A stretch of DNA of 64,000 nt from a virus (Duplodnaviria; Caudoviricetes). Positions 2,810-37,374 of the stretch are shown piece after piece. The notes under the pieces were generated by a model. It made no database searches and was not told the DNA's origin. It worked only from the letters and a program-made list of their open reading frames with translations. Both the position numbers and the translations under genes were made by a program. Location: positions 1-64,000 of IMG/VR virus record IMGVR_UViG_3300046717_000225, one strand, 5' to 3'. The stretch's first letter is position 1, and every line of letters starts with the position of its first letter.

Positions 2810-3514
2810 TCAGAAGCTGGCGTGGATCAGTTCCAGGTGCGCGTCCTGCTGCGCGACGGCCTTGGCGTCGGCCGCCTTGTCCAGGCTGTCCGTCTCGAAC
2901 AGGGTCCGCTCGCCCCGGGCCGGGTTGCGGTACTCGACCGTGTACGTACGGGCCTGGAACGCCTGGACCAGCTCGGCCTTGCTCGGGGCGGGAGCGTCCA
3001 TCCGGACGGTGAACGCGGTCCGGTGGGTCGTGTACGTGCGCACCCGGTCCAGCCGGAAGCTGCGCTTCTCGCCCGACTTGCGGTCGGCCGCCTTCACGAT
3101 GACGTCCCCGGCCTTGGTCAGGCTCAGGCTGGTCGGCTCGATGGTTCGTACGGTCTCCTCGCCGTCCGCCTTCACGTACGTCACTGTCACCGGCTGGACC
3201 TTGCGGACCGCCTTGTGCAGCCTGGCCGCTGCGTCGTCGGAGACCGTGAACACGGTCATGACCGTTCCGCCGGTCAGGAGGACGACAACCCGCAGCCCCG
3301 GCAGCTCGTACTCGAACACCTCACCCTGGCCGAACTCGTCGGTGTAGTCCTCGTTCAGCGCGTTGGCACGGTGTGCGTCGGCACAGTCGGCGATGACCGT
3401 GTCGGCTACTGCCGCGCGTCCCGGGGTCCAGACGACCGTTACGGTCTCGGTGTCGACCCGGCCCTCCACGAAGTGCACGGTCTCGACGGTCCGGGAGTTC
3501 GTGTTCTTGTTCAT
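2810..3514 (-). CDS. WYL-domain protein
   Basis: VTVTYVKADGEETVRTIEPTSL...DRKSGEKRSFRLDRV matches the WYL domain pattern. Confidence 0.8.
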   Translation of the reverse strand: MNKNTNSRTVETVHFVEGRVDTETVTVVWTPGRAAVADTVIADCADAHRANALNEDYTDEFGQGEVFEYELPGLRVVVLLTGGTVMTVFTVSDDAAARLHKAVRKVQPVTVTYVKADGEETVRTIEPTSLSLTKAGDVIVKAADRKSGEKRSFRLDRVRTYTTHRTAFTVRMDAPAPSKAELVQAFQARTYTVEYRNPARGERTLFETDSLDKAADAKAVAQQDAHLELIHASF

Positions 3515-3644: not shown

Positions 3645-3833
3645 ATGGTCAGTGCACGAGGTGGTCACTGGGGTTTCGTATTCCGCAATCGCCAGGCCGT
3701 GTACCGCGCCCTGCGCAAGCAGGGGATGAGCAAGGCCAAAGCGGCCCGGATCAGCAACGCCGGGCAGAGCCACGCTCAGCGCTCGGTCATGGCACGCAAG
3801 GGCGCGCAGACCCGCCGGGCCCGGGGCAACTAG
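3645..3833 (+). CDS. small basic protein
   Basis: VYRALRKQGMSKAKAARISNA motif; RBS GAGAGGGG; lone plus-strand gene in the left arm. Confidence 0.65.
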   Translation: MVSARGGHWGFVFRNRQAVYRALRKQGMSKAKAARISNAGQSHAQRSVMARKGAQTRRARGN

Positions 3834-4732
3834 GCCAGCGCGCGCCTGATCCCCTCCTCCAGAGTGACCTTGGGCGTGTAGATCGTCAGCATCCGCTCCG
3901 GATCACCGACCCGGTAGGCGACGCCCTGCGGCGCGTCCGGGTTGGGCCGTATCTCGGCCTCCTTCCCGGCGGCCTCCAGCATGAGCCGGCTGAGCTGGAC
4001 GAACGAGGTCGCCCGGCCCATGCACAGGTTGACCGGTAGGTCCGTGCCCGACTCGGCCACGGCCAGCGCACCCCAGACGACGTCCTCCACGTGGATCCAG
4101 TCCCGGACGCAGTCCCCGCACCACAGGTCGAGCGGCTGGCCGGGCTCAAGCGCCCTGACCCGGTCGAGGATCGCCCGGAACGGGTAGGACGGGTCCTGGT
4201 CTTCTCCGTAGCCGGAGAACGGCCGGACGACCGTGACCGGGACGCCCGCCTTCCGGAGCCTGTCGGCGAGGAGTTCCCCGGTCACCTTGCTCCAGCCGTA
4301 GACCTCGTCCGGCATCATGATGTCCGTGTCCCCGTTGTTCCAGATCTCGTCCTCCTGGAGGGCCGATCCCCCGGGCCCCCTCTGGAACGCGACCGGGTAC
4401 GCCGCACTGCTGCTCAAGTACAGCACCCGGCCCGGCCGCGCGACCGCAGCCCAGCGGAACATCTCCGCGTCGATGGACAGGCTCTCGGCCGTGGCCAGCG
4501 GGTCACGCTCGATCGTCTCCCGGCCGCCGACCACGGCCGCACAGTGGACCACGAGGTCGTAGTGCGTCCAATTGACGCGGGGGTTTCGAGCCTGCTGCTG
4601 GAAGAGCATCCGGCAGTCCTGGGTCTGGGTCGTTCTCACGTCGAAGCCCACGACGTCCCACCCCCGGGCCTTCAGCTCGGCCGCGAAGTGGCGTCCCAGG
4701 AAGCCCCGGTCTCCCGTGATCAATGCTCTCAT
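3830..4732 (-). CDS. NAD-dependent epimerase/dehydratase (extended SDR)
   Basis: Rossmann TGDRGFLG, HCAA, LSSSAAY, catalytic YGWSK, RPFSGYG, RDWIHVEDV. Confidence 0.92.
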   Translation of the reverse strand: MRALITGDRGFLGRHFAAELKARGWDVVGFDVRTTQTQDCRMLFQQQARNPRVNWTHYDLVVHCAAVVGGRETIERDPLATAESLSIDAEMFRWAAVARPGRVLYLSSSAAYPVAFQRGPGGSALQEDEIWNNGDTDIMMPDEVYGWSKVTGELLADRLRKAGVPVTVVRPFSGYGEDQDPSYPFRAILDRVRALEPGQPLDLWCGDCVRDWIHVEDVVWGALAVAESGTDLPVNLCMGRATSFVQLSRLMLEAAGKEAEIRPNPDAPQGVAYRVGDPERMLTIYTPKVTLEEGIRRALA

Positions 4733-4850
4733 CAGTACCACTTCCTCATGTGCGGGCAGTAGCACCGTCGGCAGATGGCCGAGGCGAACGGGCCACAGGA
4801 CACAAACGGATGGGGGACCACGGCCCACCACGCCCGGATCAGAAAACGGA

Positions 4851-5441
4851 TCACCACCGGCCCGGCACCCCGCTTGTGTGCTGTCCATGCCAATGCCATC
4901 TCCACGTGCGCCTGTTCAGGTGGGAAAACTTGGCGCCGGAGGCGAGCAGCTTCTGCCAGGTCCCGTGATCGTCGTTGAGGCTTTCGGGGCTGTCCGGGGT
5001 CTTGGCCGTGAACCCCCCGGCCGACCACAACAGGTCCGTCCGGACCAGGACCGTGATCGGAATGTAGTTCACGGTCCGGAGCAGATCCTCGTCGAACGGC
5101 TGCCCCTCCCTCTCCGGCCACGGGTCTCCCCAGGGCGCCTCGGGGATGTCGAACCACGGGTAGACCAGGTCGGCTCCGGTCTCCTGAGCGTGTTCGAGCA
5201 GGAGCCGGACGTGGTCCGGGCACCACTCGTCGTCGTCGTCCAGCAGGGCGGACCACTCCGTGCCCACTCCGGACAGGGCCCGGCTGCGGTTCTTGGCCGA
5301 GCCGAGCCGGCCGTGGTCGACCGAGACGCTGATCGCGTCCACGGGCCGGTCCTGCTGGAGCACGCTGTCCAGGGCCCGGTGCAGTTCCTTGCCCACCCGG
5401 GGCGGGATGGACGCTATGATCGCCGTTACCCCAGGCCTCAT
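4851..5441 (-). CDS. GT2 (GT-A fold) glycosyltransferase
   Basis: AIIASIP, RALDSVLQQ, NRSRAL, ALLDDDDEW, ADLVYPW; ATGA overlap with upstream gene. Confidence 0.88.
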   Translation of the reverse strand: MRPGVTAIIASIPPRVGKELHRALDSVLQQDRPVDAISVSVDHGRLGSAKNRSRALSGVGTEWSALLDDDDEWCPDHVRLLLEHAQETGADLVYPWFDIPEAPWGDPWPEREGQPFDEDLLRTVNYIPITVLVRTDLLWSAGGFTAKTPDSPESLNDDHGTWQKLLASGAKFSHLNRRTWRWHWHGQHTSGVPGRW

Positions 5442-6070
5442 GCGCGCACCGCCATCCAGAGCTGGAAGGTGTAGGCGTCCGGGTAGTTCAGGGTCGACTG
5501 CGGGGTGAACAACTGGACCTCCAGCGGAATCCAGCCGTTGGCCTGAAGCATCTCGTGCACGTCCGCCTGGCCCCATCCCCAGTAGTGCTCGGCGTTCCCG
5601 GTCGAGGCGGGCTCGTCCAGGGGCGTGGACAGGAACAGGTAGCGGGCGTTCTGTGCAATCGCCCGGAGCAGTGCGTCCGGGTCGTCCACGTGCTCGATCG
5701 TCTCGGACAGGACGAACAGGTCGACCGGGGCGGGCAGGTGCACGAGCGTGTCCGGCAGGGGACCGGGCGGCACGTCCTCGGCGTCCATCGCCCCGCACGA
5801 CACCAGAGCCGACACCGGTGCCCCGTTCAGGTCACCGAAGACCGCATTGTCCAGGTACCGGCTGATCATGTTGAGCAGCGCCCCGTCCCCGCAGGACAGA
5901 TCAGCCGCCGACCGGATCGCGCCCCGGTACCTGTCGATCAGGTCGGCCGACGCCTTGACCCGCTCAATGTGATCGGGCCAGCGGTCGTGCTTGTAACCGT
6001 CCGGGTAGGTCCGCGCGTAGAACGCGGCCTCGCCCTCGGGACGGGCCTCACGCAGCCGGGTCCTTGTCAT
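5438..6070 (-). CDS. class I SAM-dependent methyltransferase
   Basis: DLSCGDG motif I, DLFVLSETIEHVDDP, LFLSTP. Confidence 0.85.
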   Translation of the reverse strand: MTRTRLREARPEGEAAFYARTYPDGYKHDRWPDHIERVKASADLIDRYRGAIRSAADLSCGDGALLNMISRYLDNAVFGDLNGAPVSALVSCGAMDAEDVPPGPLPDTLVHLPAPVDLFVLSETIEHVDDPDALLRAIAQNARYLFLSTPLDEPASTGNAEHYWGWGQADVHEMLQANGWIPLEVQLFTPQSTLNYPDAYTFQLWMAVRA

Positions 6071-6330
6071 ACGCACCCCTTGGTCGACTTCTCGTAGCCT
6101 TTGCCCTCGTAGGTACAGACAGGGCAGATGCCGTGGAACGTACAGGGGTCCTTCTCGTCCGGGATCGAGAAGACCTTTCCCTGGACCTCGCGCCACTCAT
6201 GGCCGCCCATCTCCCGGCCGCACAACGGGCACGGGAGCCAGAAGTACCCCCCGGTGAAGGCCCACCACTCATGGACCCAACGGGGCAGGAACGAGATCCG
6301 GCCCCGGGCCTCACGCAGCCGGACGCGCAT
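6067..6330 (-). CDS. hypothetical Zn-binding protein
   Basis: CPLCG...CPVC; overlaps flanking genes. Confidence 0.65.
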   Translation of the reverse strand: MRVRLREARGRISFLPRWVHEWWAFTGGYFWLPCPLCGREMGGHEWREVQGKVFSIPDEKDPCTFHGICPVCTYEGKGYEKSTKGCV

Positions 6331-7027
6331 CGCTGTACTCCTCCCGGATCTGCCGGACCAGGCTGTCCAGCCAGCCGTTGTTCCGGTACGTCTCCCAGGC
6401 TTGCCGGTCCGCCTGGTCCGCCTCGGACGCGTTCACGACCCGGTACCGCTCGTCCCACTCCGCCTTGCCCGCGATCGGGTGCAGGTGCTCGATGACCACG
6501 TCGTCCAGGTAGACGAGTCCGTTGAGCTTCTCGCCCAGTTCCTTCCAGAAATTGTCCAGGTAGAGGTGCCGCATGACCGGAGGCGCCATCATCTCCATGA
6601 CCCTGACCAGGCGAGACTGCATGAACACGGCCGTAGGCAGGTTCGCGCCCTGGAGCAGGTCGTTCCCGTACACGATCCGGGGCTCCAGGCTGTCCAGCGC
6701 GTCCAGCACCCGGCCGTCCCACCCTCGCGTGCGAGGTAGGTGGTCGTCCCCCATGAAGCCGACCGCCTCGTACAGCTCGGCGTAGCGGACGGCCGCGTAG
6801 TTGAGCGCGCGGCACATGCCGCCACCGTGCCTGTCCGGGATCATCAGCCGGGGGATCTTTCCCTCCTCCAGCAGGGCCCGGTACCCCGGCAGCTCCGGGT
6901 CGTCCGAGTCGGCCACGAACACGGGCAGGGCGTCCAGGGCATCGCTGCTCCTGAACGCCTGCGCCAGCCGGGCCGCGTTCTGCGGCCGTCCCCGGGTGGG
7001 GACGATCACTGCGAGGGGTGGGGTCAC
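6311..7027 (-). CDS. GT2-like glycosyltransferase
   Basis: VIVPTRGRP, ALNYAA, FMGDDH, YLDNFW, VIEHLHP; RBS AAGGAGG with GTGA overlap. Confidence 0.85.
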   Translation of the reverse strand: MTPPLAVIVPTRGRPQNAARLAQAFRSSDALDALPVFVADSDDPELPGYRALLEEGKIPRLMIPDRHGGGMCRALNYAAVRYAELYEAVGFMGDDHLPRTRGWDGRVLDALDSLEPRIVYGNDLLQGANLPTAVFMQSRLVRVMEMMAPPVMRHLYLDNFWKELGEKLNGLVYLDDVVIEHLHPIAGKAEWDERYRVVNASEADQADRQAWETYRNNGWLDSLVRQIREEYSDARPAA

Positions 7028-7434
7028 CTGTTCCTCCTTGACGGTCTGGCCACCGCGTGCGCCAGCTCCGAGTTGATCTGGGACTCCCGGGTCGTCTTGA
7101 CCAGGTGGGAGATGACGGCCGCGAGCAGGGCCAGGCCGATGAGCCCGAGCAGCAGCGCCACCATGACCACGGCCAGTATGAACGCGCAGATCGTCCCGAT
7201 GATGCAGGACAGCAGCGCCACCCACAGCCACGGGATCACCTGCTCGGCTACGGTCGGCTTCGGGGGCGGGGGCGGCGGAGCGGGGGGTGCGTAATGGTGA
7301 TGTTCGTGCACGTGGATGACCTGCCCGCCGGGACCCGTGCCGGAGGGCTCGCCGGCCAGCCCTGCGGGCAGGGGGTTCATCTTCAGGTACTCCACGATGG
7401 CGGGTAGCCGGTCGTTTTCCTGGTCCATGGTCAC
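7024..7434 (-). CDS. membrane protein, Streptomyces plasmid spread (Spd)-like
   Basis: HEHHHYAPPAPPPPP followed by two hydrophobic helices; adjacent to TraB. Confidence 0.6.
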   Translation of the reverse strand: MTMDQENDRLPAIVEYLKMNPLPAGLAGEPSGTGPGGQVIHVHEHHHYAPPAPPPPPPKPTVAEQVIPWLWVALLSCIIGTICAFILAVVMVALLLGLIGLALLAAVISHLVKTTRESQINSELAHAVARPSRRNR

Positions 7435-7452
7435 ATCTCCTTGCTCAGCGGT

Positions 7453-7680
7453 TCAGTGTCCGGAGGCGATGCGCCGCTGGACGTACTGGTCCAGCAGCCA
7501 CCACGGCACGGTGCATACGGCGACGAACACGACCGATCCGAACACCGGAAGGTTCAGCCAGTCGCCGGGAACGAGCCCCACCGCCATGTACGCGGTGAAG
7601 AACCCCAGCACCAGGTCCAGGGCGATGAACAGGTAGGTCTGGGTCTCCCACCACAGCCACCGCATCCAGTATTGGATCAT
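7453..7680 (-). CDS. small membrane protein
   Basis: 75 aa, two TM segments. Confidence 0.7.
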   Translation of the reverse strand: MIQYWMRWLWWETQTYLFIALDLVLGFFTAYMAVGLVPGDWLNLPVFGSVVFVAVCTVPWWLLDQYVQRRIASGH

Positions 7681-7754
7681 GTCCGTTTTGCTCCTTCTGT
7701 GTGGGTTGACGGGTCAACCGTGTGAGCCCAAGAACCTCCTAGGCCAGAACGGTC

Positions 7755-7780
7755 GTCACGGTCTTGGTCACGGCCGTGAC
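7755..7780. repeat. GTCACGG repeats just downstream of traB, clt/TRS candidate
   Basis: GTCACGG at 7755 and 7767; inverted copy at 7774 forms palindrome GTCACGGCCGTGAC. Confidence 0.4.
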
Positions 7781-7803
7781 GGCCATTCTCGTCAAGGACG
7801 TGA

Positions 7804-9762
7804 TCAGGCGGTTGACGACTCCTGGAACTTGCGCAGGATGGTGTAGATGGCCTTGCCCTTCGGGGGCTTGTGCATCTTCATCACCCCCGCCTCGACCAGG
7901 AGACTGAGCTGGTTGTAGATCCAGCCGGGGGTCCGGCCGACCTCGGTCTGTACCCCGTCCAGGTCGTCGAAGGTGATGTCGTAGTGACCGCCCCGGGCCA
8001 GCACCTCCAGCCGGTTCATCAGACGGCGCCGGGCCTCCCCGGTGTCCATGTTCGTCTTCGCCTCCTTGCCGAAGTCGAAGCCCAGCCCGGCGGCGGGCGG
8101 GGTCAGGGGCTCGTTCACGTCCACACCGGTCAGCTCCTCCAGGGTCGGGGGCTCGATCTCCTCCGCCTCGTCATCCTCAGCGTCCTCGTCAGCCACCCCA
8201 TCAGTAGCTGTCAGCCCCAGGGCGAGACGCTCGTACGTACCCGGGTCGAGCACGGCCCAGAACTGCCGGGACTGCTCCAGGGCCATGTGCTTCTCGGCCG
8301 CGCTCATGTACACCGCCCGGCCGTCGATGGGCCAGCGGGCCTTGTCCGTCCCGGTCATCTCCGCGTACAGGCTGCCCGGGGCGTCCGGGCCCCACTTGGT
8401 CGGGTCGGCGCCGGCCTCCAGCGTGTCCGGATGCAGGGCGTACTTGGCGTCCTGGTACTCGTTCTGGCCGTGGGCCAGGGACTGGCTGAACTGCCCGCGC
8501 GTCTTGCGCGGAATGTTGTCGTAAGGCATGGTCTGCATGCTCAGGCACAGGTGGATGCCTACGGACCGCAGCTTACGCACCGCGTTGTCCAGCTCCATGT
8601 CCATGTCCATCACGACGTCGGCCGCCTCCTCGATGTCGATGAAGACGAACGGGACGCCGTGCCGCGTGTAGCACTCCGGCTCCCACTGCTTGTAACCCGT
8701 GCCCCCGTCCGACCGTTCAAGCGATCCGAGCAGTCCCGCCCGGTAGCTGACCACCTCCGGCAAGTTGGCGATCAGTTGCTTGACCTGGTCTTCCGTCTTG
8801 GCGGCGATGCCCAGGCAGTCCTCGATGTCCCGGAAGCCCTGGTTGAACTTGGCCGGGTCGGCGACGACCGGGACCACGTCCGTCCGCCAGCGCATGTCGA
8901 TGATCGCGGTGCAGATGGTCTCCGTCTTGCCGGCGCCGGTCACTCCGGTGCACTTCGTGTGGGCGACGGGACGGGGGTTCTTCGGGTCGGTGGACCCGAC
9001 GATCCAGTACTCGATGTCCGAGCCGTCCGTCCGGCGTCCGAGGTACAGCGGAGCTGCGGCGATGGACTGCCCGGGAGCGCTCGGACCCCGGTAGACGAGG
9101 GGCTTGCTGGTGTCCTGCGCCCGGGTGAACACGACGTCGACCTTGCCCTCGTCGCCCTTGACCTTGAGGACTTTCACCTGGTCAGCGCCCACACCGGCCA
9201 CGGCAGCGATCTGCTCCCGGGCGTGCTGCGCGTCGCCGGAGGTGGTCGGGGCGTCGAGCTTTGTACGGAAGCGCAACTCGTCCTCGGTCTCCTTGACGCT
9301 GCTCTTCTCCGTCCGGCTGCCCTTGAAGGCACTGATCCTGCCCGCCAGCCAGCCCCCGTCCTCCTTCTTGTCGGTCCGGTCCCGGTCGTGCCCGCCGACG
9401 ATGCCCGCGTGACGGATCATCCAGAAGGACGACAGGGCGAACCCGCCCACGGCCCATGCCTTGAGAAAGTCTCCGGACCAGGGCGTTCCCGTCCCGGCCA
9501 GGGTGACCCACGCGAGCATCGCACCCGTGAACAAGGTGACCGTGGCGCGGGTCTCGTGCTTGTGGACTTTCCAGGTGTGCCACGTGGCCCAGGTGATGAC
9601 CGTGCAGATCACGCCCACGATCGTCATCCATTTCGGGTCGTTCCCGAGTGTGAAGTGAAGCAGCACGGCCACCGGCATCGCAGCGAGCATGAGCAGCCAC
9701 GGAGCCACGTACGGGACCGTCTTCTCCCCCGGGCTCAGGCGGGGACCCCGGCGGCCGGCCAT
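7804..9762 (-). CDS. traB: FtsK/SpoIIIE-like conjugative DNA translocase (TraB)
   Basis: N-terminal TM helices, Walker A GVTGAGKT, Walker B VFIDIEEAA, LRSVGIHLCLSMQ, C-terminal winged-helix-like RTPGWIYNQLSLLVEAG. Confidence 0.85.
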   Translation of the reverse strand: MAGRRGPRLSPGEKTVPYVAPWLLMLAAMPVAVLLHFTLGNDPKWMTIVGVICTVITWATWHTWKVHKHETRATVTLFTGAMLAWVTLAGTGTPWSGDFLKAWAVGGFALSSFWMIRHAGIVGGHDRDRTDKKEDGGWLAGRISAFKGSRTEKSSVKETEDELRFRTKLDAPTTSGDAQHAREQIAAVAGVGADQVKVLKVKGDEGKVDVVFTRAQDTSKPLVYRGPSAPGQSIAAAPLYLGRRTDGSDIEYWIVGSTDPKNPRPVAHTKCTGVTGAGKTETICTAIIDMRWRTDVVPVVADPAKFNQGFRDIEDCLGIAAKTEDQVKQLIANLPEVVSYRAGLLGSLERSDGGTGYKQWEPECYTRHGVPFVFIDIEEAADVVMDMDMELDNAVRKLRSVGIHLCLSMQTMPYDNIPRKTRGQFSQSLAHGQNEYQDAKYALHPDTLEAGADPTKWGPDAPGSLYAEMTGTDKARWPIDGRAVYMSAAEKHMALEQSRQFWAVLDPGTYERLALGLTATDGVADEDAEDDEAEEIEPPTLEELTGVDVNEPLTPPAAGLGFDFGKEAKTNMDTGEARRRLMNRLEVLARGGHYDITFDDLDGVQTEVGRTPGWIYNQLSLLVEAGVMKMHKPPKGKAIYTILRKFQESSTA

Positions 9763-9763
9763 G

Positions 9764-10240
9764 TCAGCTCCTGCTCATGCTGAAGCCGCCCCGGCTACCC
9801 CGGTGCGGACGGTCTACGTTGCCGGACTCGATCTCCTCCAGGAAGTCCTGCATGATCGCGTAGGTCTTCACGGAGGAGGTCGCCGCGTCCAGCAGGGCTT
9901 CGGCCGCCGTGTTGTCCATCTGGCGGCCGATCTTGCGCAGGGCCTGCTGGAGCTTCACCTTCTGGGCCAGGGTCAGGCGGCCGTCGGCGTTGTCCCGGGC
10001 GCCCTTGCGGGCCGCTGCCTGCACCTGGGACGCCGCCGCGTGCACGAAGAACGCCATGCCCGTACTCAACGCACGCAGGGCCTCCAGGAACTCGTACAGC
10101 CCCTGCGGGTCCAGCACCTCCCCCTCGGCGAGGGTGGCGAGATGCTGCTCCATGGACTTCTGGGTGGCCTTGCCCTGCGCCTGTGCCCCGGACGTGGTGG
10201 TGCCTTTGGGCGGGGGCTTGACCGTGCTTGCTGTGGTCAT
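9764..10240 (-). CDS. TraA-like plasmid transfer accessory protein
   Basis: 158-aa helical protein directly upstream of traB, where TraA lies in Streptomyces plasmids. Confidence 0.55.
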   Translation of the reverse strand: MTTASTVKPPPKGTTTSGAQAQGKATQKSMEQHLATLAEGEVLDPQGLYEFLEALRALSTGMAFFVHAAASQVQAAARKGARDNADGRLTLAQKVKLQQALRKIGRQMDNTAAEALLDAATSSVKTYAIMQDFLEEIESGNVDRPHRGSRGGFSMSRS

Positions 10241-10274
10241 GATCGGTGTTCCTCTCTCGGTTGGTTGGGACAGC

Positions 10275-11066
10275 TCAGGCTGTCCTGCGGAGTGCCTTGT
10301 TTATCGAGTTGTCCTTAGCGCCCTCGTAGCCGGGGACAGTGGGGACAATCGCCTTGATCATGTCCTTGTCGTGTCCCGCCGCGCGCAAGGCGCGGATGAT
10401 CTCGGTCAGGGACCGGAGACGGGACAACTCGTCCACTGGGACAGAAGCAGGAGCAAAGGTCTTGATCAAGGACACTGCGGGGACACGGGGCGGGGACACC
10501 GTCCTCGGGGCCCGTGACGGACGCGGGGATGCGGGGACAGGCTGTACAGGAGCCGTTGTCCTGGCCTTGGGGAGGGGACGCTCGGCCTGGACCTTCCGGG
10601 ACACTGTCCCTGCGGGCATCGCCGCGAAGTGCAGGAGGTGTCCCAGGATCAGCGGGGGGACAGAGGACACCGTGGCCACCAGCCACAGCGGGGGACGGGG
10701 GTCTGCGGACAAGTAGCCCGTAACGAACATGTGGCTCACCGGCTGAGCACCCATGGCGAGCGCGAGGCTCAGGATGGCCCCCCAGACCGACGAGGTCTTC
10801 CCCCGGCCGCCCTTGGGCAGCTGGGTACTGATGACGGCCGCCAGGCCCGCGTAGAGGGTGAAGAGACCGCTCAGGCCCCAGCTCATGGTCGGGCCCCAGC
10901 CGGACAGATCGGCGAGGTGCTGCTCCCCCGGTGCACAGAGCACCAGGACGAGGATCGCGGCAGCCGGGACACCCCAGCGCCGGAACTCGGTCACCCAGCC
11001 AGGGACATCCTCTGTCCCGGGGACCGTGTCCCCGGACGTCCGGTGGGACACGAAGGGATTGCGCAT
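10275..11066 (-). CDS. Spd-like membrane protein with Pro-rich linker and possible C-terminal DNA-binding domain
   Basis: 3-4 TM segments (LVLCAPGEQHLA...SSVPPLILGHLLH), low-complexity linker, basic helical C-terminus. Confidence 0.65.
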   Translation of the reverse strand: MRNPFVSHRTSGDTVPGTEDVPGWVTEFRRWGVPAAAILVLVLCAPGEQHLADLSGWGPTMSWGLSGLFTLYAGLAAVISTQLPKGGRGKTSSVWGAILSLALAMGAQPVSHMFVTGYLSADPRPPLWLVATVSSVPPLILGHLLHFAAMPAGTVSRKVQAERPLPKARTTAPVQPVPASPRPSRAPRTVSPPRVPAVSLIKTFAPASVPVDELSRLRSLTEIIRALRAAGHDKDMIKAIVPTVPGYEGAKDNSINKALRRTA

Positions 11067-11165
11067 TGCCCTGTCCTCCTTGGTCCGTGGTCGATTAAGT
11101 TAAAGCGTCTGTCCCCAAGGTATGTCCACGGAGGACAGCCGTCAAACCGGGCGGGGGGCACGACA

Positions 11166-11198
11166 AAGCCCGAGGACACTTTCCTTGTCCTCGGGCTT
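11166..11198. terminator. 13-bp inverted repeat terminator
   Basis: AAGCCCGAGGACA-N7-TGTCCTCGGGCTT downstream of the 11210 stop. Confidence 0.7.
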
Positions 11199-11209
11199 CG
11201 TCCTCGGGG

Positions 11210-11509
11210 TCAGATGCCGTTGTCCTCGGGGGACAGACGGGACTTGTCTAGGGACACGGACTTGTCCTGGGACACGTCCGGGACAGAGACGGGCTCCAGG
11301 TACACGTAGTGGAACCGGGTCAGGACACAGTCCTCGGACAGGACACCGTCCGGCATGTCCGGGTGTCCCGGCAGATTGTCCAGGACGAGCTGCTGGAGAT
11401 CAATCTCGGACAGGACACCGTCCGCCGTGGCCGTCCCGGACATCTCGGCATAGCCGTCCCCGTTGAAGTGCGCCCGGTAGGTGAAGAGGTAGCTGTACTT
11501 GGTCTGCAT
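11210..11509 (-). CDS. hypothetical protein
   Basis: 99 aa, RBS ACCAAGGAGGA. Confidence 0.65.
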   Translation of the reverse strand: MQTKYSYLFTYRAHFNGDGYAEMSGTATADGVLSEIDLQQLVLDNLPGHPDMPDGVLSEDCVLTRFHYVYLEPVSVPDVSQDKSVSLDKSRLSPEDNGI

Positions 11510-11632
11510 CTGTCCTCCTTGGTCGGTGGTCCTGTCCGGAGTTTACCCGGACAGCTCATTTAGCTAAACGAGTGTTTCCGGACACAGGACGACCCCGGAA
11601 CGATCAGGTTCCGGGGTCGTGTCCAGGGTCGG

Positions 11633-12064: not shown

Positions 12065-12715
12065 CTACAGGCCCCGGCCGGCGGTGCTCTTCGGGTTGGC
12101 TCGCCAGTACCAGGTCTTCCGGTCCACGTGTTCGAACGTGTCCTGCACCCGGTGGCCACGGGCCTCGGCCGCATCCAGCAGGCGGATGAGGTAGTCCTCG
12201 TCCTCGCCCCGGTACCGGCCGGACGGGAGCGTGTACCCGGGCTTGAACCCGCCGATCGCCCGGACGGCCTCGGTCCGGACGAGGTGGGTCATGGGGATGA
12301 ACGACCCTATCTGCCGGATGTGCTCGGCGTGCTCCTGCGTGAAGCGCAGGCCCCAGGGCGAGGTCGGGAAGACGCTCTGGTGCGTGACGGCCGTGGGGTC
12401 CTGCATGCCGAGGAAGACCGGCCGGGGGTAGACCAGGTCCGGCTTGAACGGGCTCTGCTCCAGGACCCGCATGCACACCTTGAGGTGCGAGGGGTTCAGG
12501 GTGTCGTCATCATCAAGGAAGGAAATTACGTCGCACTGAACCCGGGCGAGCGCGCGGTTACGCGCAGCCCAGGCTCCGGTGCGCTCGCTGTCCCGCTCCA
12601 CGATCAGCTGGTCCGCCTTGCGCTCCTGACGGAGGGCGGAGAGGCGGGCCTGTTCGAGCGAGCGCTCCCGCCCGGGGATTGTCGGGATGATCACTGCGAC
12701 GGTGAGGCGGGCCAT
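12065..12715 (-). CDS. GT2 glycosyltransferase
   Basis: VAVIIPT, AARNRAL, ISFLDDDD, DLVYP, GEDEDY. Confidence 0.9.
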   Translation of the reverse strand: MARLTVAVIIPTIPGRERSLEQARLSALRQERKADQLIVERDSERTGAWAARNRALARVQCDVISFLDDDDTLNPSHLKVCMRVLEQSPFKPDLVYPRPVFLGMQDPTAVTHQSVFPTSPWGLRFTQEHAEHIRQIGSFIPMTHLVRTEAVRAIGGFKPGYTLPSGRYRGEDEDYLIRLLDAAEARGHRVQDTFEHVDRKTWYWRANPKSTAGRGL

Positions 12716-27206: not shown

Positions 27207-27940
27207 CCATCAAGGCCATCGAGACCCGGTACGCGGGGTGCAGGTTCCGGTCCCGGCTGGAGGCGCGCTGGGCCGTGTTCTTCGACTCTCTCGGGGTCGC
27301 CTGGGAGTACGAGAAGGAGGGGTTCGAGACTCCGGATGGCGGGTACCTTCCGGACTTCTGGCTGCCCAACGGGGGAGGCTGGTGGGAGATCAAGGGGGAA
27401 GCTCCTTCCGAGCACGACCTCAACCGGTGCCGCTGGGTCCCTGGCCTGTGTGTCCTTGTAGGGGACATCCCTCGGGACATTGAAAGCCCGGACACGATCC
27501 AATGGCTCATGTACGGCTCCTGCTCAGACTGTGAACACGTGGGGCCTTGCTTCTGCGGGCATGGGAGCGTCTTCTGCCGGTGTGCTCCGGGACAGGAGGC
27601 GAAACGCTGGTTCACTGCGAGCTGGGACGAGTACTGGCCGTTCGGGGACAACCCTCGGCGGGTCTCCGACCAAGAGGCCCTGAACAGGGCCAGGTCTGCC
27701 CGGTTCGAGCATGGGGAGTCCGGAGCCCCTAAGGCTCAGCCCCCCAAGCGGGCTGCACCCCTGCACACGCCAACCGATAACCCGTTCAAGCCCCGGGGTG
27801 TGCTAGGTGAGCCCGAGGGGACGGAGCCCTGCTGCTCACGCTACCCATTTGGCTGTGACCACATCTGGTGCCCCCGCTGCAATGACTGGGGCAAGGACAC
27901 CGGGTCCGGCTGCTCCAAGCATGCCAACCCGTCCTGGTAG
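27203..27940 (+). CDS. PD-(D/E)xK nuclease-like protein, paralog 2
   Basis: FRSRLEARWA...WEYEKE...YLPDF...WWEIK. Confidence 0.7.
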   Translation: MTIKAIETRYAGCRFRSRLEARWAVFFDSLGVAWEYEKEGFETPDGGYLPDFWLPNGGGWWEIKGEAPSEHDLNRCRWVPGLCVLVGDIPRDIESPDTIQWLMYGSCSDCEHVGPCFCGHGSVFCRCAPGQEAKRWFTASWDEYWPFGDNPRRVSDQEALNRARSARFEHGESGAPKAQPPKRAAPLHTPTDNPFKPRGVLGEPEGTEPCCSRYPFGCDHIWCPRCNDWGKDTGSGCSKHANPSW

Positions 27941-27956
27941 ACCAAGGAGCCTGCGC

Positions 27957-30900
27957 ATGACCATGGAAATGGCTCCGGCCGACCTGCTGCCCGGACACGC
28001 TCGTGAGCTGGAGGAGAGCTGTATCGCGCCGCAGGTACGGGACCGGCGCCGGTACGAGACCCTGTACGACACGGAGGAGAGCCGGGCCCGGCTCAAGGAG
28101 CTGCGTATCCCCCGCTGGGCCTGGCGGGACCCGATGGCGTTCCCGGGCCTTCTCATGCCCATGTACCGGGTGACGGGAGAGGAAATCGGGCACCAGTTCA
28201 AGCCCGCTCTGCCGCAGGAGGCCCCCGGGGGAAAGCTCCAGAAGTATGCGAGCCAGACCGGTGTGCCCAACCGGCTGGACGTGCCGCCGGCGGTCGCGGA
28301 CGACGTACGTGACCCGAGCAGTCCCCTCTGGATCACCGAGGGTATCAAGAAAGGGGACTGCCTGGCCTCCCTCGGCAAGGCCGTGATCACCCTGACCGGG
28401 GTGTTCAACTGGCGGTCCAAGATGGGCACGCTCGGAGACTGGGAGGACATCCCGCTCCGGGGCCGCACGACGGTCATCTGCTTCGACTCAGACGCCCGGG
28501 ACAACCGGAACGTCCTGGGGGCGATGCAGAGGCTCGGCCGCTGGCTGGAGAGCAAGGGTGCGGCCGTCCGGTACCTGATCGTGCCGGGCGAGGTGGAGGG
28601 TACCGAAGTCAAGGGCGTGGACGATTTCTTCCACGCGGGCGGGACGCTCGAAGCCCTCGGCCAGGCCAGCATGGACCAGCTGCCCAACGAGGCCCGGGAC
28701 GCGACCTTCACGGACAGGGTGCTGGCCGACACGGTGTGCTCGGAGGAGCTGGACGGCCGGTTCAGGTGGGCGTCCGGCCGGGGCTGGATGCAGTGGACGG
28801 GCAAGGTCTGGCGCGAGGCCACTGAGGTGACCGTCACGGAGACGATCAGCCGGTGGGCCCTGGAGCAGTACCACCAGGCCGTGGACCAGCAGCACAACGG
28901 CACGGGGAGGGACCTGGGCTCCGTTGTGGAGGGCTGGCGCGGGATGCTGAGCGGGAGCCGGGTGGGGGCGGTTCTCCGGCTGGCCAAGGGCGTCCTGGAG
29001 TGTGACGCGGAGGCGTTCGACCGGGACCCGGACCTGATGAACTGCCCCAACGGAATCGTGGACCTGCGGACGGGGACACTCACGCCGAACGACCCCGACC
29101 TGCTGATGACGAAGATCACGGGGGCGGAGTTCGTCAAGAACGCTGAGCACCCCGACTGGGCCAAGGCCCTGGAGGCCCTGCCGGACGACGTGGTGGACTG
29201 GTTCCAGCTACGGGTCGGACAGGCATTGACAGGGCACATGACGCCGGACGACACGGTCGTCATCTGTCAGGGCGGGGGAGAGAACGGCAAGAGCACAGTG
29301 TACGACGGGCTGGCGCTGGCAGCCGGGAAGTACCACGTCCAGGTGAGCGACCGGGCGATGATGGGCGGCGCGACGGACAACCACCCGACGGAGATCATGG
29401 ATCTGATGGGGGCCCGGTACGCCGTTCTCGAAGAGACCCCCGAGGCCCGCCGGCTGGACACCAACCGGCTCAAGAAACTGACCGGGACCCGGGAGATCAC
29501 CGGACGGCGCATCCGGCAGGACCCGGTCACCTTCGAGGCGACGCACACCATCTTCATCAACTCCAACCACAAGCCCGTCGTGGACGAGACGGATCACGGC
29601 ACCTGGAGGCGGCTGGCTCTGCTGGCGTGGCCCTACACGTTCAGGAAGCCCGGACAGGCGCTCCACGGGGCCAACGACCGTCCCGGGGACCCGACCCTGC
29701 GCGACCGCATCAAGCTCGATCCCCAGGTCCAGGAGGCTGCGCTGGCGTGGATGGCGGCCGGGGCACGGCGCTGGTACGAGCTGGAGAAGATCATGCCCGA
29801 GCAGCCTGTCCGTGTGCAGGCCGACACCCTCGCGTGGCGTAAGACGGCCGACCTGATCCTCGCCTTCGCCACGGAGGTCCTGGAGTTCGACCGGGACAGC
29901 TTCATTGCCTCCACGGAGCTACGGAGCGTGTTCAACGACTGGCTCCGGGAGAAAGGGGCGAAGGAGTGGGGGGAGAAGACTTTCAGTGCCCGTTTCGGAG
30001 GGCACGACGCGGTCACGCAGCGAGGCGTGGAGTACAAGATCGTACGTAACGGTCCGGGGCTCAGCACAAAAGCCCTTAATCCCCCGTCCGGGAAGACTCT
30101 ACGCGTATGGGCTGGAATACGCTTTTCGGGCCTACCCCCGTGCGACCGGGGTAATTCGGGTGAATCGGGCCCACCCCAGGTCAGCGGACCCACCCAAGAT
30201 CACGTTACGCCTGTTACGCCAGATCCTGTAACCCCCCTAGAAGTCACCCACGCGAGTGTTATACCTGCGACGCGTAACAGGCGTAACACGATCTTGGATG
30301 AGTACGGTCCGGACCCGTTCGAGCCCGAGCCGGCCGAGCCCGCACCCCCCGTCCTCAACGGCCCGGTCGCGTTCGACCTGGAGACCCCGAGTGCGAAGGA
30401 ACTGTTCACGTTCCGTAGCGGAGAGCAAACGCCCTACGCCCGGCTGAACGGGGTCCTGGACGGGGACGGCAAGGAGATCATCACGACCGACCCGGCCGAG
30501 CTGGTCCGCCTCCTGACGGCCGCTCCCGCCCTGTATGCCCACAACGGCTACCGGTTCGACCTGATGGCGCTCGCGTGGCACCACGGGGCCGACTACGACG
30601 CCCTCGCCGCTAAGACGTGGGACACCTACGTGGACGAGACCGTGCTGGACCCTCCGGGCGCCAAGGGCCAGAAACCCTGGGCGACGGAGGGCTACTACGG
30701 GCTGGACAAGGCCCTGGAGCGCCGGGGCGAGCCCGGCAAGACCGATCACCTGCCCGCTCTCGCCCGTGAGTTCGCGGCCGATGGCCTGACGGGCAAGGCG
30801 GCGGAGGAGGACGGATACGGAAAAATCCCGCCGGACAACGCCCGATACAACGCCTACCTGTCCGGCGACCTGAAGGCTCAGGACCGGCTGTACCGGACCC

Positions 30901-32249
30901 AGCAGGCCGACCCGGACCGCATGGAGTACCGCCGGCGTGAGCAGCGCGTCGCCCACATCCAGAACCGGATGACGCTGTCTGGCTGGAAGGTCGACGTCCC
31001 CCTGCTCGCCCGGTGCGTCCGGGAGGAGGCCGACAAGGTCCGGGAGAGCCTGGGCTGGCTGAACGAGAACTGCGGCATCCCGCTGACGAAGTCGGTCGGC
31101 ACCGGCCGGGGCAAGAACCGGACCTTCCGGGACGAGCCCGTGCTGAGCCCGCTCACGACGACCGTCGGCCGGGAGGCGGTCAAGGCCGCGTTCCGGGACC
31201 GGGGGCTGCCGTACTTCCTGGAGACCGAGAGCGGCGCGCTGGCTCTGAACAAGGACGCCCTGGGAGAGGGCAGCTACATGGTCGGCAAGGGTGCGGCCGG
31301 GAAGCTGCTGCCCGGCCTGCTGAACCCGGCGCGCATGGCCCGGCTGCCCGGGGCCGACTGGGAGGCGATAGCGGAGATGGCCGGACACATCCGGCTCGTC
31401 ACCACCGCCGTGCAGAAGTACCAGGAGATCCAGGGCTTCCTCCTCGGCGACCGGGTGCACGCTCACGTTGGCGAGACGCAGGGCAGCCGTCGCTGGGCCA
31501 TGGTGAAGCCGAGCATCACCAACCTGGGGAAAAGAGGCGGCAAGGTCGTGCAGCGGGCGCCATTCATCGCCGACGACGGCTGCGTGCTGATCGCCTTCGA
31601 CTTCGACCAGGTGGACATGCGCGCGTTCGCGGGGCACTGCGGCGACCCGGAGTACGTCGGCATGTTCCTGCGGGAGGAGGACCCGCACTCCATGGTCGCG
31701 GACATGGTGTTCGGCAGGCATGATGGGGACTGGCGCGAGCACGCCAAGGGCGCCGGCCACGGCTGGAACTACGGCCTCAGCGTCGGCGGCATGGTCAACC
31801 AGGGCATCGAGCGTCCCCTGGCCGAGCGGTTCGACGCCGGTATGAACGAGAACTACCCGGTGCTCTGCTCCTGGCGGACCGAGGTCCGTGCACGGGCGGC
31901 GGACGGCCAGCTCCTGGAGAACGGGTTCGGCGCCCTGCTGCGGTGCGACCCGGCCCGTGCGTACACCCAGGCTCCGGCCCAGATCGGCCAGGGCACGGCC
32001 CGGGACATCATGTGTGAGGGCCTGCTGCGCCTGCCGCAGGAGTACGTGCCGTGGCTGCGGGGCGTGGTGCACGACGAGGCCGTGTTCAATGTGCCCGAGG
32101 GCCGGGTGGAGGAGTGCGTGGAACGGGTGACGGCCGCCTTCACGATGGACCTGGCCGAGATCACGAACGGACGGTTGCACTCGGTGCCGATTGTGGCCGG
32201 GGCGTCCAGGCCGGGGCACGACTGGGCATCTTGCTATTCCAAGGACTGA
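27957..32249 (+). CDS. primase (TOPRIM/DUF3854-like)-SF3 helicase-family A DNA polymerase fusion, 1430 aa
   Basis: WITEG, FDSD, KGVDDF; D5-like NCPNGIVDL; Walker A GGGENGKST, INSNH; exo DLET, HNGYRFDL, YLSGD; pol DFDQVDMR, REHAKGAGHGWNYG, VHDE. Confidence 0.92.
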   Translation: MTMEMAPADLLPGHARELEESCIAPQVRDRRRYETLYDTEESRARLKELRIPRWAWRDPMAFPGLLMPMYRVTGEEIGHQFKPALPQEAPGGKLQKYASQTGVPNRLDVPPAVADDVRDPSSPLWITEGIKKGDCLASLGKAVITLTGVFNWRSKMGTLGDWEDIPLRGRTTVICFDSDARDNRNVLGAMQRLGRWLESKGAAVRYLIVPGEVEGTEVKGVDDFFHAGGTLEALGQASMDQLPNEARDATFTDRVLADTVCSEELDGRFRWASGRGWMQWTGKVWREATEVTVTETISRWALEQYHQAVDQQHNGTGRDLGSVVEGWRGMLSGSRVGAVLRLAKGVLECDAEAFDRDPDLMNCPNGIVDLRTGTLTPNDPDLLMTKITGAEFVKNAEHPDWAKALEALPDDVVDWFQLRVGQALTGHMTPDDTVVICQGGGENGKSTVYDGLALAAGKYHVQVSDRAMMGGATDNHPTEIMDLMGARYAVLEETPEARRLDTNRLKKLTGTREITGRRIRQDPVTFEATHTIFINSNHKPVVDETDHGTWRRLALLAWPYTFRKPGQALHGANDRPGDPTLRDRIKLDPQVQEAALAWMAAGARRWYELEKIMPEQPVRVQADTLAWRKTADLILAFATEVLEFDRDSFIASTELRSVFNDWLREKGAKEWGEKTFSARFGGHDAVTQRGVEYKIVRNGPGLSTKALNPPSGKTLRVWAGIRFSGLPPCDRGNSGESGPPQVSGPTQDHVTPVTPDPVTPLEVTHASVIPATRNRRNTILDEYGPDPFEPEPAEPAPPVLNGPVAFDLETPSAKELFTFRSGEQTPYARLNGVLDGDGKEIITTDPAELVRLLTAAPALYAHNGYRFDLMALAWHHGADYDALAAKTWDTYVDETVLDPPGAKGQKPWATEGYYGLDKALERRGEPGKTDHLPALAREFAADGLTGKAAEEDGYGKIPPDNARYNAYLSGDLKAQDRLYRTQQADPDRMEYRRREQRVAHIQNRMTLSGWKVDVPLLARCVREEADKVRESLGWLNENCGIPLTKSVGTGRGKNRTFRDEPVLSPLTTTVGREAVKAAFRDRGLPYFLETESGALALNKDALGEGSYMVGKGAAGKLLPGLLNPARMARLPGADWEAIAEMAGHIRLVTTAVQKYQEIQGFLLGDRVHAHVGETQGSRRWAMVKPSITNLGKRGGKVVQRAPFIADDGCVLIAFDFDQVDMRAFAGHCGDPEYVGMFLREEDPHSMVADMVFGRHDGDWREHAKGAGHGWNYGLSVGGMVNQGIERPLAERFDAGMNENYPVLCSWRTEVRARAADGQLLENGFGALLRCDPARAYTQAPAQIGQGTARDIMCEGLLRLPQEYVPWLRGVVHDEAVFNVPEGRVEECVERVTAAFTMDLAEITNGRLHSVPIVAGASRPGHDWASCYSKD
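30204..30287. repeat. 16-bp perfect inverted repeat made of TGTTACGC iterons, putative origin
   Basis: GTTACGCCTGTTACGC (30204-30219) and GCGTAACAGGCGTAAC (30272-30287) in an AT-richer intragenic patch. Confidence 0.65.
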
Positions 32250-33258: not shown

Positions 33259-33431
33259 CCTGGACGGCCCGCAAGAGGCACGGCCGGTGGCACTGGGTAT
33301 GCACCTGGTGCTCGCCGGCCGTTTCCGGTTCCACGGCCGCCTTCGGCCGCCTGCTCGTCAGCCTGCGGCATCATGAACGAGTGCGCCGGTGCCATCACAG
33401 GCATGTGGCCCGATCAAGGAGAGTCAAGTGA
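33255..33431 (+). CDS. 58-aa basic His/Cys peptide (absent from ORF track)
   Basis: MTWTARKRHGRWHWVCTWC...; GTGA overlaps at both ends. Confidence 0.5.
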   Translation: MTWTARKRHGRWHWVCTWCSPAVSGSTAAFGRLLVSLRHHERVRRCHHRHVARSRRVK

Positions 33432-36211: not shown

Positions 36212-36228
36212 CCAAGGAAGAGGAACTC

Positions 36229-37369: not shown

Positions 37370-37374
37370 CCCTT

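Follow-up and report, generated by a model that had tools for sequence, protein, structure and literature searches.

A putative plasmid-type DNA transfer and spreading module, with an element-specific repeat array, in a lineage of tailed actinophages

Streptomyces plasmids pass double-stranded DNA between hyphae with a DNA-pumping gene set that has a single motor, TraB; the winged helix of TraB is the canonical clt partner and binds 8-bp TRS repeats. TraB and Spd proteins form an intramycelial spreading complex (pSVH1; PMC4447253), and SpdA2 of pIJ101 binds palindromes within its own gene (PMC4170104). A phage with a tra locus has a precedent in pZL12 (phage ZL12, GQ919031; Zhong et al. 2010), which later accounts present as a plasmid-phage with virions and with a tra locus treated as required for conjugal transfer (PMC3583192; PMC4487206), and which is described as a singleton in another (PMC7157519). 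Conjugation domains were found only sporadically in phage-plasmids in a 2025 preprint (10.1101/2025.11.07.687105); the markers used there, for type-IV secretion and relaxases, are blind to a one-protein TraB system.

The earlier note on the DNA described here proposed a conjugative phage-plasmid; the novelty is overstated, as pZL12 already joins virions and a tra locus according to a later account (PMC3583192, citing Zhong 2010), and is in that respect a conceptual precedent. As a relative, pZL12 was rejected, since pZL12.71c, the FtsK-like protein of its tra locus, shows no relationship to the TraB of the phage (BLASTP E 0.57). It is also absent among the matches listed for the phage capsid against phage and plasmid records, and it differs in having ParA, ParB and an integrase.

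The window (the whole stretch analysed, 64,000 nt) comprises positions 1 to 64,000 of IMG/VR record IMGVR_UViG_3300046717_000225, a single metagenome-derived contig with an end overlap of only 127 nt. The complete genome has 79 kb, with direct terminal repeats and a CheckV completeness of 100%, and is that of a tailed phage of Streptomyces-like bacteria. Terminase, portal, capsid and tail genes are on the same contig as the tra module, as had been noted: the terminase was identified with Pfam and an HK97-type major capsid with tblastn, and portal and tape measure were assigned via synteny with the annotated plasmid pS1D4-14.2. A wall hydrolase with transglycosylase/NlpC-P60/LysM domains and a GH25 lysin are also encoded. 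The virion, packaging and lysis gene set of a phage-plasmid is therefore complete, and this half of the proposed term holds. The plasmid half finds no support: the lack of an integrase seen in the window extends over the entire 79-kb genome, in which recombinases of the tyrosine and serine types and an AAA_31 ParA are likewise missing and nothing matches the ParA or the integrase of pS1D4-14.2. Because integrase, serine recombinase and ParA are all absent, a plasmid state of the 79-kb phage is unsupported. The 'ParB-like' gene, previously taken as a plasmid trait, has no Pfam match and heads a DNA-modification cluster, beside amino-acid:DNA transferase (ADDT) and TET/JBP genes; a role in DNA hypermodification is more likely than one in partition. 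No match was obtained against 50,697 phage records, either by megablast of 25 kb or by tblastn with TraB.

The tra module is located in the early arm of the genome, among the DNA-modification genes. Its minus-strand gene calls across 7024-11509 are supported by GC3, and the following features were predicted:

7024..7434, minus strand: protein of 136 aa encoded downstream of traB, with a Pro-rich segment and, after it, a long hydrophobic one
7453..7680, minus strand: protein of 75 aa with two hydrophobic helices (hydropathy), in Spd-like position downstream of traB
7804..9762, minus strand: traB, membrane-anchored FtsK-like dsDNA translocase of 652 aa with C-terminal winged helix (GC3 call, profile, tree)
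9764..10240, minus strand: traA-like gene, 158 aa, stop 1 nt before the traB start
10268..11625, no strand: array of GGACA/TGTCC words (consensus RGGACAS) in both orientations, 52 words in 1.36 kb
10275..11066, minus strand: P0003, polytopic membrane protein of 263 aa (hydropathy and translation)
11210..11509, minus strand: high-GC3 ORF of 99 aa with 15 repeat words inside
11559..11568, no strand: palindromic box TTTAGCTAAA, which heads the gene string and precedes the ACCAAGGAG word (11515-11523) by 35 nt
11589..11620, no strand: inverted repeat with a 13-bp stem, between the upstream gene (stop 11633) and the box (read from the sequence)
43055-44470: T4-type large terminase, encoded apart from traB (Pfam)

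The module is co-oriented with the early genes and has the RBS word ACCAAGGAG and the palindromic box TTTANNTAAA in common with them, as stated in the earlier note. The RBS word occurs 15 times (0.46 expected), directly before the starts at 11066, 11509 and 12028 among others; the box occurs five times in the window (0 expected), once at 11559-11568, and the others of the six palindromic boxes in the whole genome are also immediately upstream of gene starts. The inverted repeat at 11589-11620 is likely the operon boundary; it has no T-run, and may act as a terminator. The 99-aa ORF had no tblastn match in any related locus, and is possibly merely array-bearing leader DNA.

The phage encodes an intact TraB of the plasmid/AICE type. 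Its residues 14-643 aligned to positions 5-633 of the NCBIfam profile plasmid_TraB (NF041214, 639 positions; E 2.4e-89), at a score of 300.6 bits that does not reach the curated equivalog cut-off of 800 bits; it is a divergent subfamily and, under the NCBI rule, not an equivalog. The alignment with pSN22 TraB (BLASTP, 24% identity, E 4e-31, over 17-626) is collinear from end to end, i.e. in membrane anchor, Walker A, Walker B and winged helix. Walker A reads GVTGAGKT (273-280) and the acidic Walker B stretch IDIEEA (375-380); residues G273, G276, G278, K279, T280, E378 and E379 are invariant across 26 relatives. The N-terminus contains hydrophobic helices, four of them at 16-125 in an AF2 model with a mean pLDDT of only 61, and the C-terminus is modelled as a unit of three helices and a beta-hairpin (574-642); the top Foldseek matches of the model are FtsK motor domains (E 4e-11). 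The motifs and the model thus bear out the FtsK-like ATPase with N-terminal TM helices and C-terminal wHTH-like region that was described before, and are consistent with the anchor, motor and winged helix expected of a TraB.

In a tree of 43 proteins, the 30 TraBs from phages cluster together (SH-aLRT 94) beside plasmid/AICE TraB, with chromosomal FtsK outside; long outgroup branches leave the deep order unsure. Profile search and tree together place the product of 7804-9762 with plasmid/AICE TraB and not with chromosomal FtsK, and homologs are present on 51 actinomycete plasmids, many of them annotated traB. A Pfam search with TraB gave nothing even at E 10, which is uninformative, since pSN22 TraB itself barely reaches FtsK_SpoIIIE (24.5 vs 24 bits); a TraB profile matched PDB sequences only at E 0.1-0.5, to FtsK. 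In PHROGs, TraB matched phrog_1358 (E 3e-5), where phage FtsK/SpoIIIE-like proteins are filed under moron and host takeover.

The traA-like gene matched NCBIfam plasmid_TraA (NF041213; E 3.8e-9, 36.8 bits, under the 80-bit cut-off) and pSN22 TraA only at E 0.012 (BLASTP). It is positioned directly upstream of traB like traA of pSN22, and its homologs in close relatives are 55-61% identical. With the NCBIfam matches of TraB and TraA and the pSN22 alignment, the earlier description of a Streptomyces plasmid-type traA-traB module is upheld. Of the genes then said to precede traB, the TraA-like one agrees in position and matches its profile at a score under the cut-off, whereas 'Spd-like' denotes a resemblance (membrane proteins in the right places), with no family match. 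Homologs of the 75-aa protein are 40-52% identical in four related loci (L005, L019, L020 and L035), and most of the family has a homolog of the 136-aa protein, with 33-65% identity, on the downstream side of traB. The module shares with pSN22 (traR-traA-traB-spdA-spdB) the collinear TraB, with traA directly before it and small membrane genes after it. It differs in the low identity of TraB, in the lack of an adjacent GntR-type TraR, in the upstream rather than downstream position of the large membrane protein, and in the host replicon, a 79-kb tailed phage.

This large membrane protein, P0003, consists of an N domain (about aa 30-150), a Pro-rich linker and a small helical C-terminal domain, termed type A. 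In relatives the N domain shows 49-77% identity, and the product of a gene that precedes an AICE TraB matches it at 33%. P0003 has no Pfam match, including DUF2637 (PF10935), a family whose cut-off is exceeded by its positional counterparts in L007 and L026 and whose clusters are nearest to P0003 in ESM features (0.90, a lead only); SpdA and SpdB of pSN22 are themselves without a Pfam family. The type A domain gave no significant fold match: Foldseek E-values exceeded 1, and VIA Z-scores, which reached no more than 5.4, were within noise.

The repeat-word array covers the coding part for the linker and C-terminal domain of P0003, intergenic DNA, the 99-aa ORF and the operon head. Word density is 38 per kb in the array and about 4 per kb in the remaining genome; the best 500-nt windows of the array contain 24-25 words, those elsewhere at most 7. 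Within the array, the non-coding DNA at 11067-11209 has 42 words per kb, while the conserved TM-coding part of P0003 has 17 per kb. The array also shapes the linker peptide, which is rich in GD/RDT/VSP with GGACA and in ES/RK/RE with CGAAAG. Helical phasing of the words (10.5 nt) was not significant, with 332 of 1000 random placements as good.

In relatives, the arrays occupy the same place with 30-70 copies, and the word differs between elements. In all 30 elements, without exception, the word class corresponds to the class of the C-terminal domain of the membrane protein:

Type A, word GGACA: 23 elements (22 by BLAST, L124 by eye)
Type B, word CGAAAG/CGAGAG: two elements
Type C, word CGTCTC/CGTTGC: three elements, in three separate TraB lineages
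Type D, word CTCAGC: one element
L032, own word TCCGGA: C-terminal domain outside all four classes

From this covariation we infer DNA binding by the C-terminal domain, and P0003 is a candidate Spd-like DNA tether. Array and domain are adjacent, and could also switch as one recombination cassette without interacting. The array as clt of TraB is not supported by covariation, as the winged helix is conserved among relatives and does not track the word changes; L027 and L022 have a near-identical helix and different words. No over-represented 8-mer was found genome-wide as a TRS/KOPS candidate, with counts about as expected, and no second array was found at the 3' end of traB in the window, where some relatives are weakly enriched for GATCA or TGACA. 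The 52 words also differ from the few TRS repeats of pSN22 and pSVH1. A parallel is SpdA2/sps of pIJ101, a Spd-named protein that binds short repeats in its own coding region; these impose a peptide motif (PMC4170104), as the phage array does on the linker. SpdA, however, is small and soluble, with 1-3 copies of one conserved 12-bp palindrome, whereas P0003 is membrane-anchored and its 30-70-copy word varies between elements. Word arrays and domain cassettes also offer a natural experiment on the choice of DNA by Streptomyces transfer systems.

In our view, 7024-11625 is probably a working operon for dsDNA transfer and spreading, of the type known from Streptomyces plasmids, and a vertically inherited core of its lineage; it would act as follows. 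During infection or carriage in the mycelium, TraB hexamers would reside in the membrane or in septal cross-walls and pump the double-stranded phage genome into adjacent hyphal compartments, possibly into other mycelia, with the small membrane proteins as Spd-type helpers. P0003 would bind the repeat array via its C-terminal domain and thereby tether the element's own DNA at the membrane; the array would be the site that acts in cis, comparable to clt or sps. The outcome would be a virion-independent route, and the gene content suggests that the phage may also spread without virus particles. Relatives with ParA and integrase persist as plasmids in Streptomyces isolates; because the 79-kb member has neither, cell-to-cell movement of an infecting genome is more likely its use of the module than conjugation of a stable plasmid. 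A broader reading, to which we lean somewhat less than evenly, is that an ancient and widespread actinophage lineage relies on TraB/Spd for viral 'movement', taking the genome across septal cross-walls and hyphal contacts so that a single infection would pervade a multicellular mycelium without virions, its own DNA being chosen by a membrane-anchored, sequence-specific tether on the 30-70-word array, with a specificity swapped repeatedly between lineages. If the module is functional, these elements would link the two main horizontal transfer routes of the genus that produces most antibiotics, and would be the bacterial counterpart of viruses that move from cell to cell within a multicellular host.

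Alternatively, tether, array and TraB may serve vertical maintenance, positioning the genome and pumping it across closing septa, to keep it in branching hyphae and trap it in spores (a carrier state) as a stand-in for the missing ParA. Clearing of DNA from septa is established for pumps of the FtsK family (FtsK, SpoIIIE), and a dense array bound by a membrane protein would resemble an anchoring centromere; moreover, the 79-kb genome lacks ParA and integrase, yet relatives persist in cultures, and SpdA2/sps acted on segregational stability, not on transfer (PMC4170104). We nevertheless regard this reading as rather unlikely, as TraB groups with conjugative TraB and not with chromosomal FtsK-type pumps, and plasmid-resident relatives retain TraB alongside ParA. 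Since spreading and stability are inseparable in Streptomyces (PMC4170104, discussion), maintenance may partly be the same mechanism seen from another side.

Transfer and spreading is also preferred over an accessory role in the lytic cycle, e.g. keeping out incoming plasmids, AICEs or superinfecting phage, or moving host DNA by export or by pumping coupled to its degradation. The PHROGs category of phrog_1358 and the early-arm location among DNA-modification genes would fit such a role, which becomes improbable in view of the conservation of the plasmid-like set (traA, traB, membrane genes, cis array) as a whole, and of the element-specific array, which argues for the element's own DNA as the substrate.

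A single metagenome-derived contig with a short end overlap might raise the suspicion of a chimeric assembly, or of plasmid cargo that was captured recently and is inert or decaying, but either is very improbable. About 30 independent assemblies, one of them the Nanopore+Illumina hybrid assembly of a plasmid, share the gene order GT2 - membrane protein - traA - traB - small membrane genes - GT, which also settles the concern raised earlier about chimeric junctions. Of 23 near-complete relatives, which are IMG/VR contigs of 75-99 kb with a capsid gene (75 kb being the lower limit, and the lowest capsid identity about 50%), 22 encode an intact TraB in the same synteny. Every TraB copy examined for stop codons is open, with invariant catalytic residues, and nearly all complete relatives conserve the Walker residues and the winged helix. 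The phage TraBs form one group and diverge in step with the capsid (TraB/capsid identities of 65/67%, 47/62%, 42/60% and 32/50%), and GC3 and RBS word of the module resemble those of the remaining genome. Over 120 protein clusters are related to TraB (51-94% identity), and contigs of 75-102 kb carry many of them. As judged from these comparisons, the module is an old and conserved, vertically inherited core, not cargo, in a large lineage of tailed actinophages with genomes of 75-100 kb, and a near-universal feature of dozens of elements from soil viromes and Streptomyces isolates. At least one member can dispense with it, as no TraB match was obtained in a complete relative of 76.9 kb that has direct terminal repeats.

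That TraB is a chromosomal-type FtsK or a DNA-packaging ATPase, as its best structural matches to FtsK motor domains might imply, is hardly credible given the full-length TraB match with no FtsK profile match in NCBIfam or Pfam, the position of chromosomal FtsK outside the TraB group, the separate large terminase, and the N-terminal membrane anchor and traA partner, which are TraB features.

Carriage in isolates was found by an alignment-based scan (a single-protein scan of genome contigs gave nothing): three Streptomyces isolates besides S1D4-14 have TraB on stand-alone contigs of 92-96 kb, with the capsid gene confirmed alongside in two. The plasmid of Streptomyces sp. S1D4-14, pS1D4-14.2 (NZ_CP041606), is listed as a circular 98.8-kb replicon from the hybrid assembly of an isolate (PMC6753273). 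It shares genome-wide synteny with the phage at 36-68% protein identity (TraB 52%), including portal, capsid, tape measure and a primase fusion, and differs in its size, in encoding ParA and a tyrosine recombinase, in additional genes that separate traB from the GT gene, and in an array of CGAAAG/CGAGAG words with a type B domain. With this cultivable relative, the question of transfer is directly testable. In its record, pS1D4-14.2 is annotated merely as a plasmid with hypothetical proteins.

The tra region (window 7024-11625) comprises six ORFs, all on the minus strand and all with coding-type GC3, among them:

7804-9762, minus strand, traB, 652 aa
9764-10240, minus strand, traA-like ORF, 158 aa
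10275-11066, minus strand, P0003, a polytopic membrane protein upstream of the traA-like ORF, 263 aa

The 652-aa protein has no Pfam match, which carries little weight because TraB of the Streptomyces conjugative plasmid pSN22 only just reaches FtsK_SpoIIIE (24.5 versus a threshold of 24 bits). It matches the NCBIfam model plasmid_TraB over its full length (E 2.4e-89; 300 bits, below the equivalog cut-off of 800 bits), and pSN22 TraB aligns end to end (24% identity, E 4e-31) across the membrane anchor, Walker A (GVTGAGKT), an acidic Walker B stretch, the SMQ motif and a C-terminal GR..W..(helix) segment. An AF2 model (mean pLDDT 61) places an alpha/beta core between four N-terminal helices and a C-terminal unit of three helices and a hairpin; a structural search with it ranks FtsK motor domains first (E 4e-11), followed by TcpA, a conjugation coupling protein, and EccC/EssC. 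The earlier note's description of an intact FtsK-like ATPase with N-terminal TM helices thus holds. The traA-like ORF stops one base before traB, in the traA-traB order of pSN22, and matches plasmid_TraA at E 3.8e-9, under the cut-off; of the TraA-like and Spd-like genes proposed to precede traB, the former is recovered at this sub-threshold score and the latter would be P0003, a resemblance in membrane character and position and not a family match. Downstream of traB are 75-aa and 136-aa proteins, both with hydrophobic helices.

The phage-borne TraBs, 30 of the 43 proteins placed in a tree, cluster together (SH-aLRT 94) next to the TraBs of AICEs and pSN22, with chromosomal FtsK of a Streptomyces genome outside, the deep order being unsure owing to long outgroup branches; the proposed comparison by HMM and phylogeny therefore places the protein with TraB. 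A protein search recovered more than 120 clusters at 51-94% identity; all lack a Pfam annotation, and many lie on 75-102 kb contigs. Scanning IMG/VR with a capsid profile yielded 75 loci. Among capsid-positive contigs 75 kb or longer, 22 of 23 carry TraB, the exception being a complete 76.9-kb genome, and all copies checked for stop codons were open. Across relatives, identity to the window drops in parallel for TraB and capsid, as expected under vertical descent, and the gene order is conserved (GT2, small gene(s), membrane protein, traA, traB, small membrane genes, GT). Retention, parallel divergence and constant neighbourhood exclude both an assembly chimera at the tra-phage junctions, a concern raised earlier, and recent cargo.

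The two shared motifs reported previously are real: ACCAAGGAG occurs 15 times (0.46 expected) and TTTANNTAAA five times (0 expected), and a TTTANNTAAA box at 11559-11568 heads the tra gene string. Six TTTANNTAAA palindromes (window 3546, 11559, 21532, 32288, 40471; genome 78590) all lie at operon heads, several directly after a GGGTAC/T word in this genome of about 68% G+C (GC3 near 0.9 in real genes), and are candidates for an operator or a phage-specific promoter element.

The word GGACA/TGTCC occurs 52 times in 10268-11625, i.e. 38 per kb versus about 4 per kb elsewhere in the genome, where every other 500-nt window holds seven copies or fewer; the words run in either orientation and share the consensus RGGACAS. 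Words are no less dense in non-coding DNA (42 per kb at 11067-11209) than across the P0003 sequence coding for the linker and C-terminal domain, which places the constraint on the DNA; the stretch coding for the conserved membrane domain has few (17 per kb). No relative has a homolog of the 99-aa ORF at 11210-11509, which may be no more than array DNA. Relatives carry arrays at the equivalent position, 1-2.5 kb upstream of traB, and GGACA arrays are missing from the eight AICE or chromosomal TraB loci examined. At one of these, an AICE-type locus (L011, Embleya sp. chromosome), a GTGAAC cluster (12-14 copies versus about one expected) lies about 2.5 kb upstream of TraB; word arrays beside traB may thus be more general than the phage lineage.

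The membrane protein is modular. Its N-terminal membrane domain comes in alternative types, of which Pfam DUF2637 is one; its C-terminal domain varies likewise, and the peptide sequence of its low-complexity linker changes with the DNA word. The class of the C-terminal domain agreed with the class of the word in 30 of 30 elements, nine of which were examined only once this rule had been formed.

C-terminal domain and array word in 30 elements (L numbers are related TraB loci)
Type A domain: GGACA; 23 elements, window included (22 by BLAST, L124 by eye)
Type B domain: CGAAAG / CGAGAG; 2 elements (L021, L027)
Type C domain: CGTCTC / CGTTGC; 3 elements (L020, L035, L119)
Type D domain: CTCAGC; 1 element (L123)
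No class A-D by BLAST: TCCGGA; 1 element (L032)

The type C domain is found in three separate TraB lineages, and L119 and L123 are TraB sisters, yet differ in both word and domain. The TraB winged helix shows no such agreement with the word: it is nearly identical in L027 (CGAAAG) and L022 (GGACA). The simplest reading of these patterns is that the C-terminal domain would bind the array, though the two are adjacent and could travel jointly as one cassette without interacting. The predicted fold of the domain, a small helical bundle, gave no significant structural match. A close precedent is SpdA2 of pIJ101, which binds palindromes within its own gene that impose a peptide motif (PMC4170104), comparable to the linker peptide here. 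In L032, the membrane protein (7994-9502) carries an inserted T5orf172/MUG113 (GIY-YIG-like) domain.

The window covers bases 1-64000 of a single 79,319-base record, whose first and last 127 bases are identical, so the assembly is circular; it is classed as direct terminal repeats (IMG/VR) and 100% complete (CheckV). Genes at 1-26 kb are on the minus strand; the tra genes are among them, along with a helicase gene and genes for sugar and DNA-modification enzymes. Plus-strand genes from 26 kb on cover replication, ParB-like/DNA modification, virion and lysis functions. Individual genes of the genome include:

window 2810-3514 and genome 76734-77141, WYL-domain protein and WhiB-like regulator
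window 27807-32249, plus strand, single ORF of 1480 aa, primase-helicase-PolA fusion (DUF3854/Toprim, D5_N, DUF5906 helicase, family A DNA polymerase)
window 33389-38683, plus strand, ParB-like gene, then amino-acid:DNA transferase (ADDT; PF18724) and TET/JBP dioxygenase (PF12851)
right part, from 26 kb on, plus strand, T4-type terminase, portal, HK97-type capsid and tail genes
window 41789-42838, wall protein with Transglycosylase-like (Rpf-type), NlpC/P60 and LysM domains
genome 73606-75201, GH25/CHAP lysin, separate from the wall protein

The plasmid pS1D4-14.2 of Streptomyces sp. S1D4-14 (NZ_CP041606; TraB 52% identical) is the top database match; the genome announcement lists it as circular, with 98,815 bp, in an assembly of Nanopore and Illumina data (PMC6753273). 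It is syntenic with the phage genome across its entire length, and its annotation includes portal, capsid, tape measure, ParA, a ParB-family protein, primase and a tyrosine recombinase; searchable papers on the S1D4-14 strain collection do not describe it as a phage or traB carrier. In three further Streptomyces isolates TraB lies on stand-alone 92-96 kb contigs, with the capsid gene confirmed on the same contig in two.

The complete 79-kb genome holds no tyrosine or serine recombinase and no ParA-type ATPase, and neither ParA nor the integrase of pS1D4-14.2 has a tblastn match in it, which extends the earlier "no integrase" to the whole element. The self-contained replicase claimed previously is present, the 1480-aa fusion being a one-polypeptide replicase; a ParB-like gene also exists, whose product shares 37.5% identity with the ParB-family protein of pS1D4-14.2, but it has no Pfam match and heads the ADDT-TET/JBP cluster. 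Support for the plasmid half of the phage-plasmid reading thus comes from the relatives only. With glycosyltransferases, a methyltransferase and a sugar epimerase at window 3830-7231 and 12065-12715, this cluster suggests that the phage DNA is probably hypermodified; if so, any DNA moved by TraB would bear those modifications.

At the sequence level, the data show that TraB and TraA are intact and conserved, that they are accompanied by membrane partners and by a cis array specific to the element, and that they stand behind an operon head of the type used elsewhere in the phage. It is established for the family that TraB needs no other protein to transfer unprocessed dsDNA, and that with Spd proteins it forms a complex spreading plasmids through the recipient mycelium (PMC4447253; PMC3583192). 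In the phage, P0003 would tether the phage genome at the membrane and TraB would pump it into neighbouring compartments or mycelia, and we consider it rather probable that the module serves transfer or spreading of the phage genome. A mainly vertical role, in genome positioning and spore entrapment, appears unlikely, and in a mycelial host it would partly coincide with spreading, a point made by the SpdA2 authors (PMC4170104); a lytic-cycle role unrelated to either is more doubtful still, and chimera, cargo, FtsK or packaging explanations are negligible. The earlier observation is thus confirmed and its interpretation, a conjugative phage-plasmid, partly supported.

For this concept there is one experimental precedent, the Streptomyces plasmid-phage pZL12 (PMC3583192), whose translocase is unrelated to TraB of the phage lineage and which is called a singleton (PMC7157519). 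Phage-plasmid reviews state that no conjugative phage-plasmid is known (PMC12282955), and a recent survey found conjugation domains to be only sporadic in phage-plasmids (10.1101/2025.11.07.687105); the T4SS and relaxase markers of such surveys would be blind to TraB. A literature search, mostly of sources outside subscription journals, found no description of this lineage. The module is of high interest to specialists, since it is widespread and conserved, escapes standard mobility typing, and can be tested in a relative that is cultivable.

The wall protein could help DNA or virions in wall crossing, and the WYL-domain and WhiB-like proteins are possible ties to host stress or developmental control. 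The protein at genome 75500-76576 aligns only to both ends (1-255, 627-720) of its pS1D4-14.2 ortholog (78898-81084), which is of double length and annotated as a LAGLIDADG endonuclease; this pattern is consistent with an intein or homing endonuclease having inserted into the ortholog.
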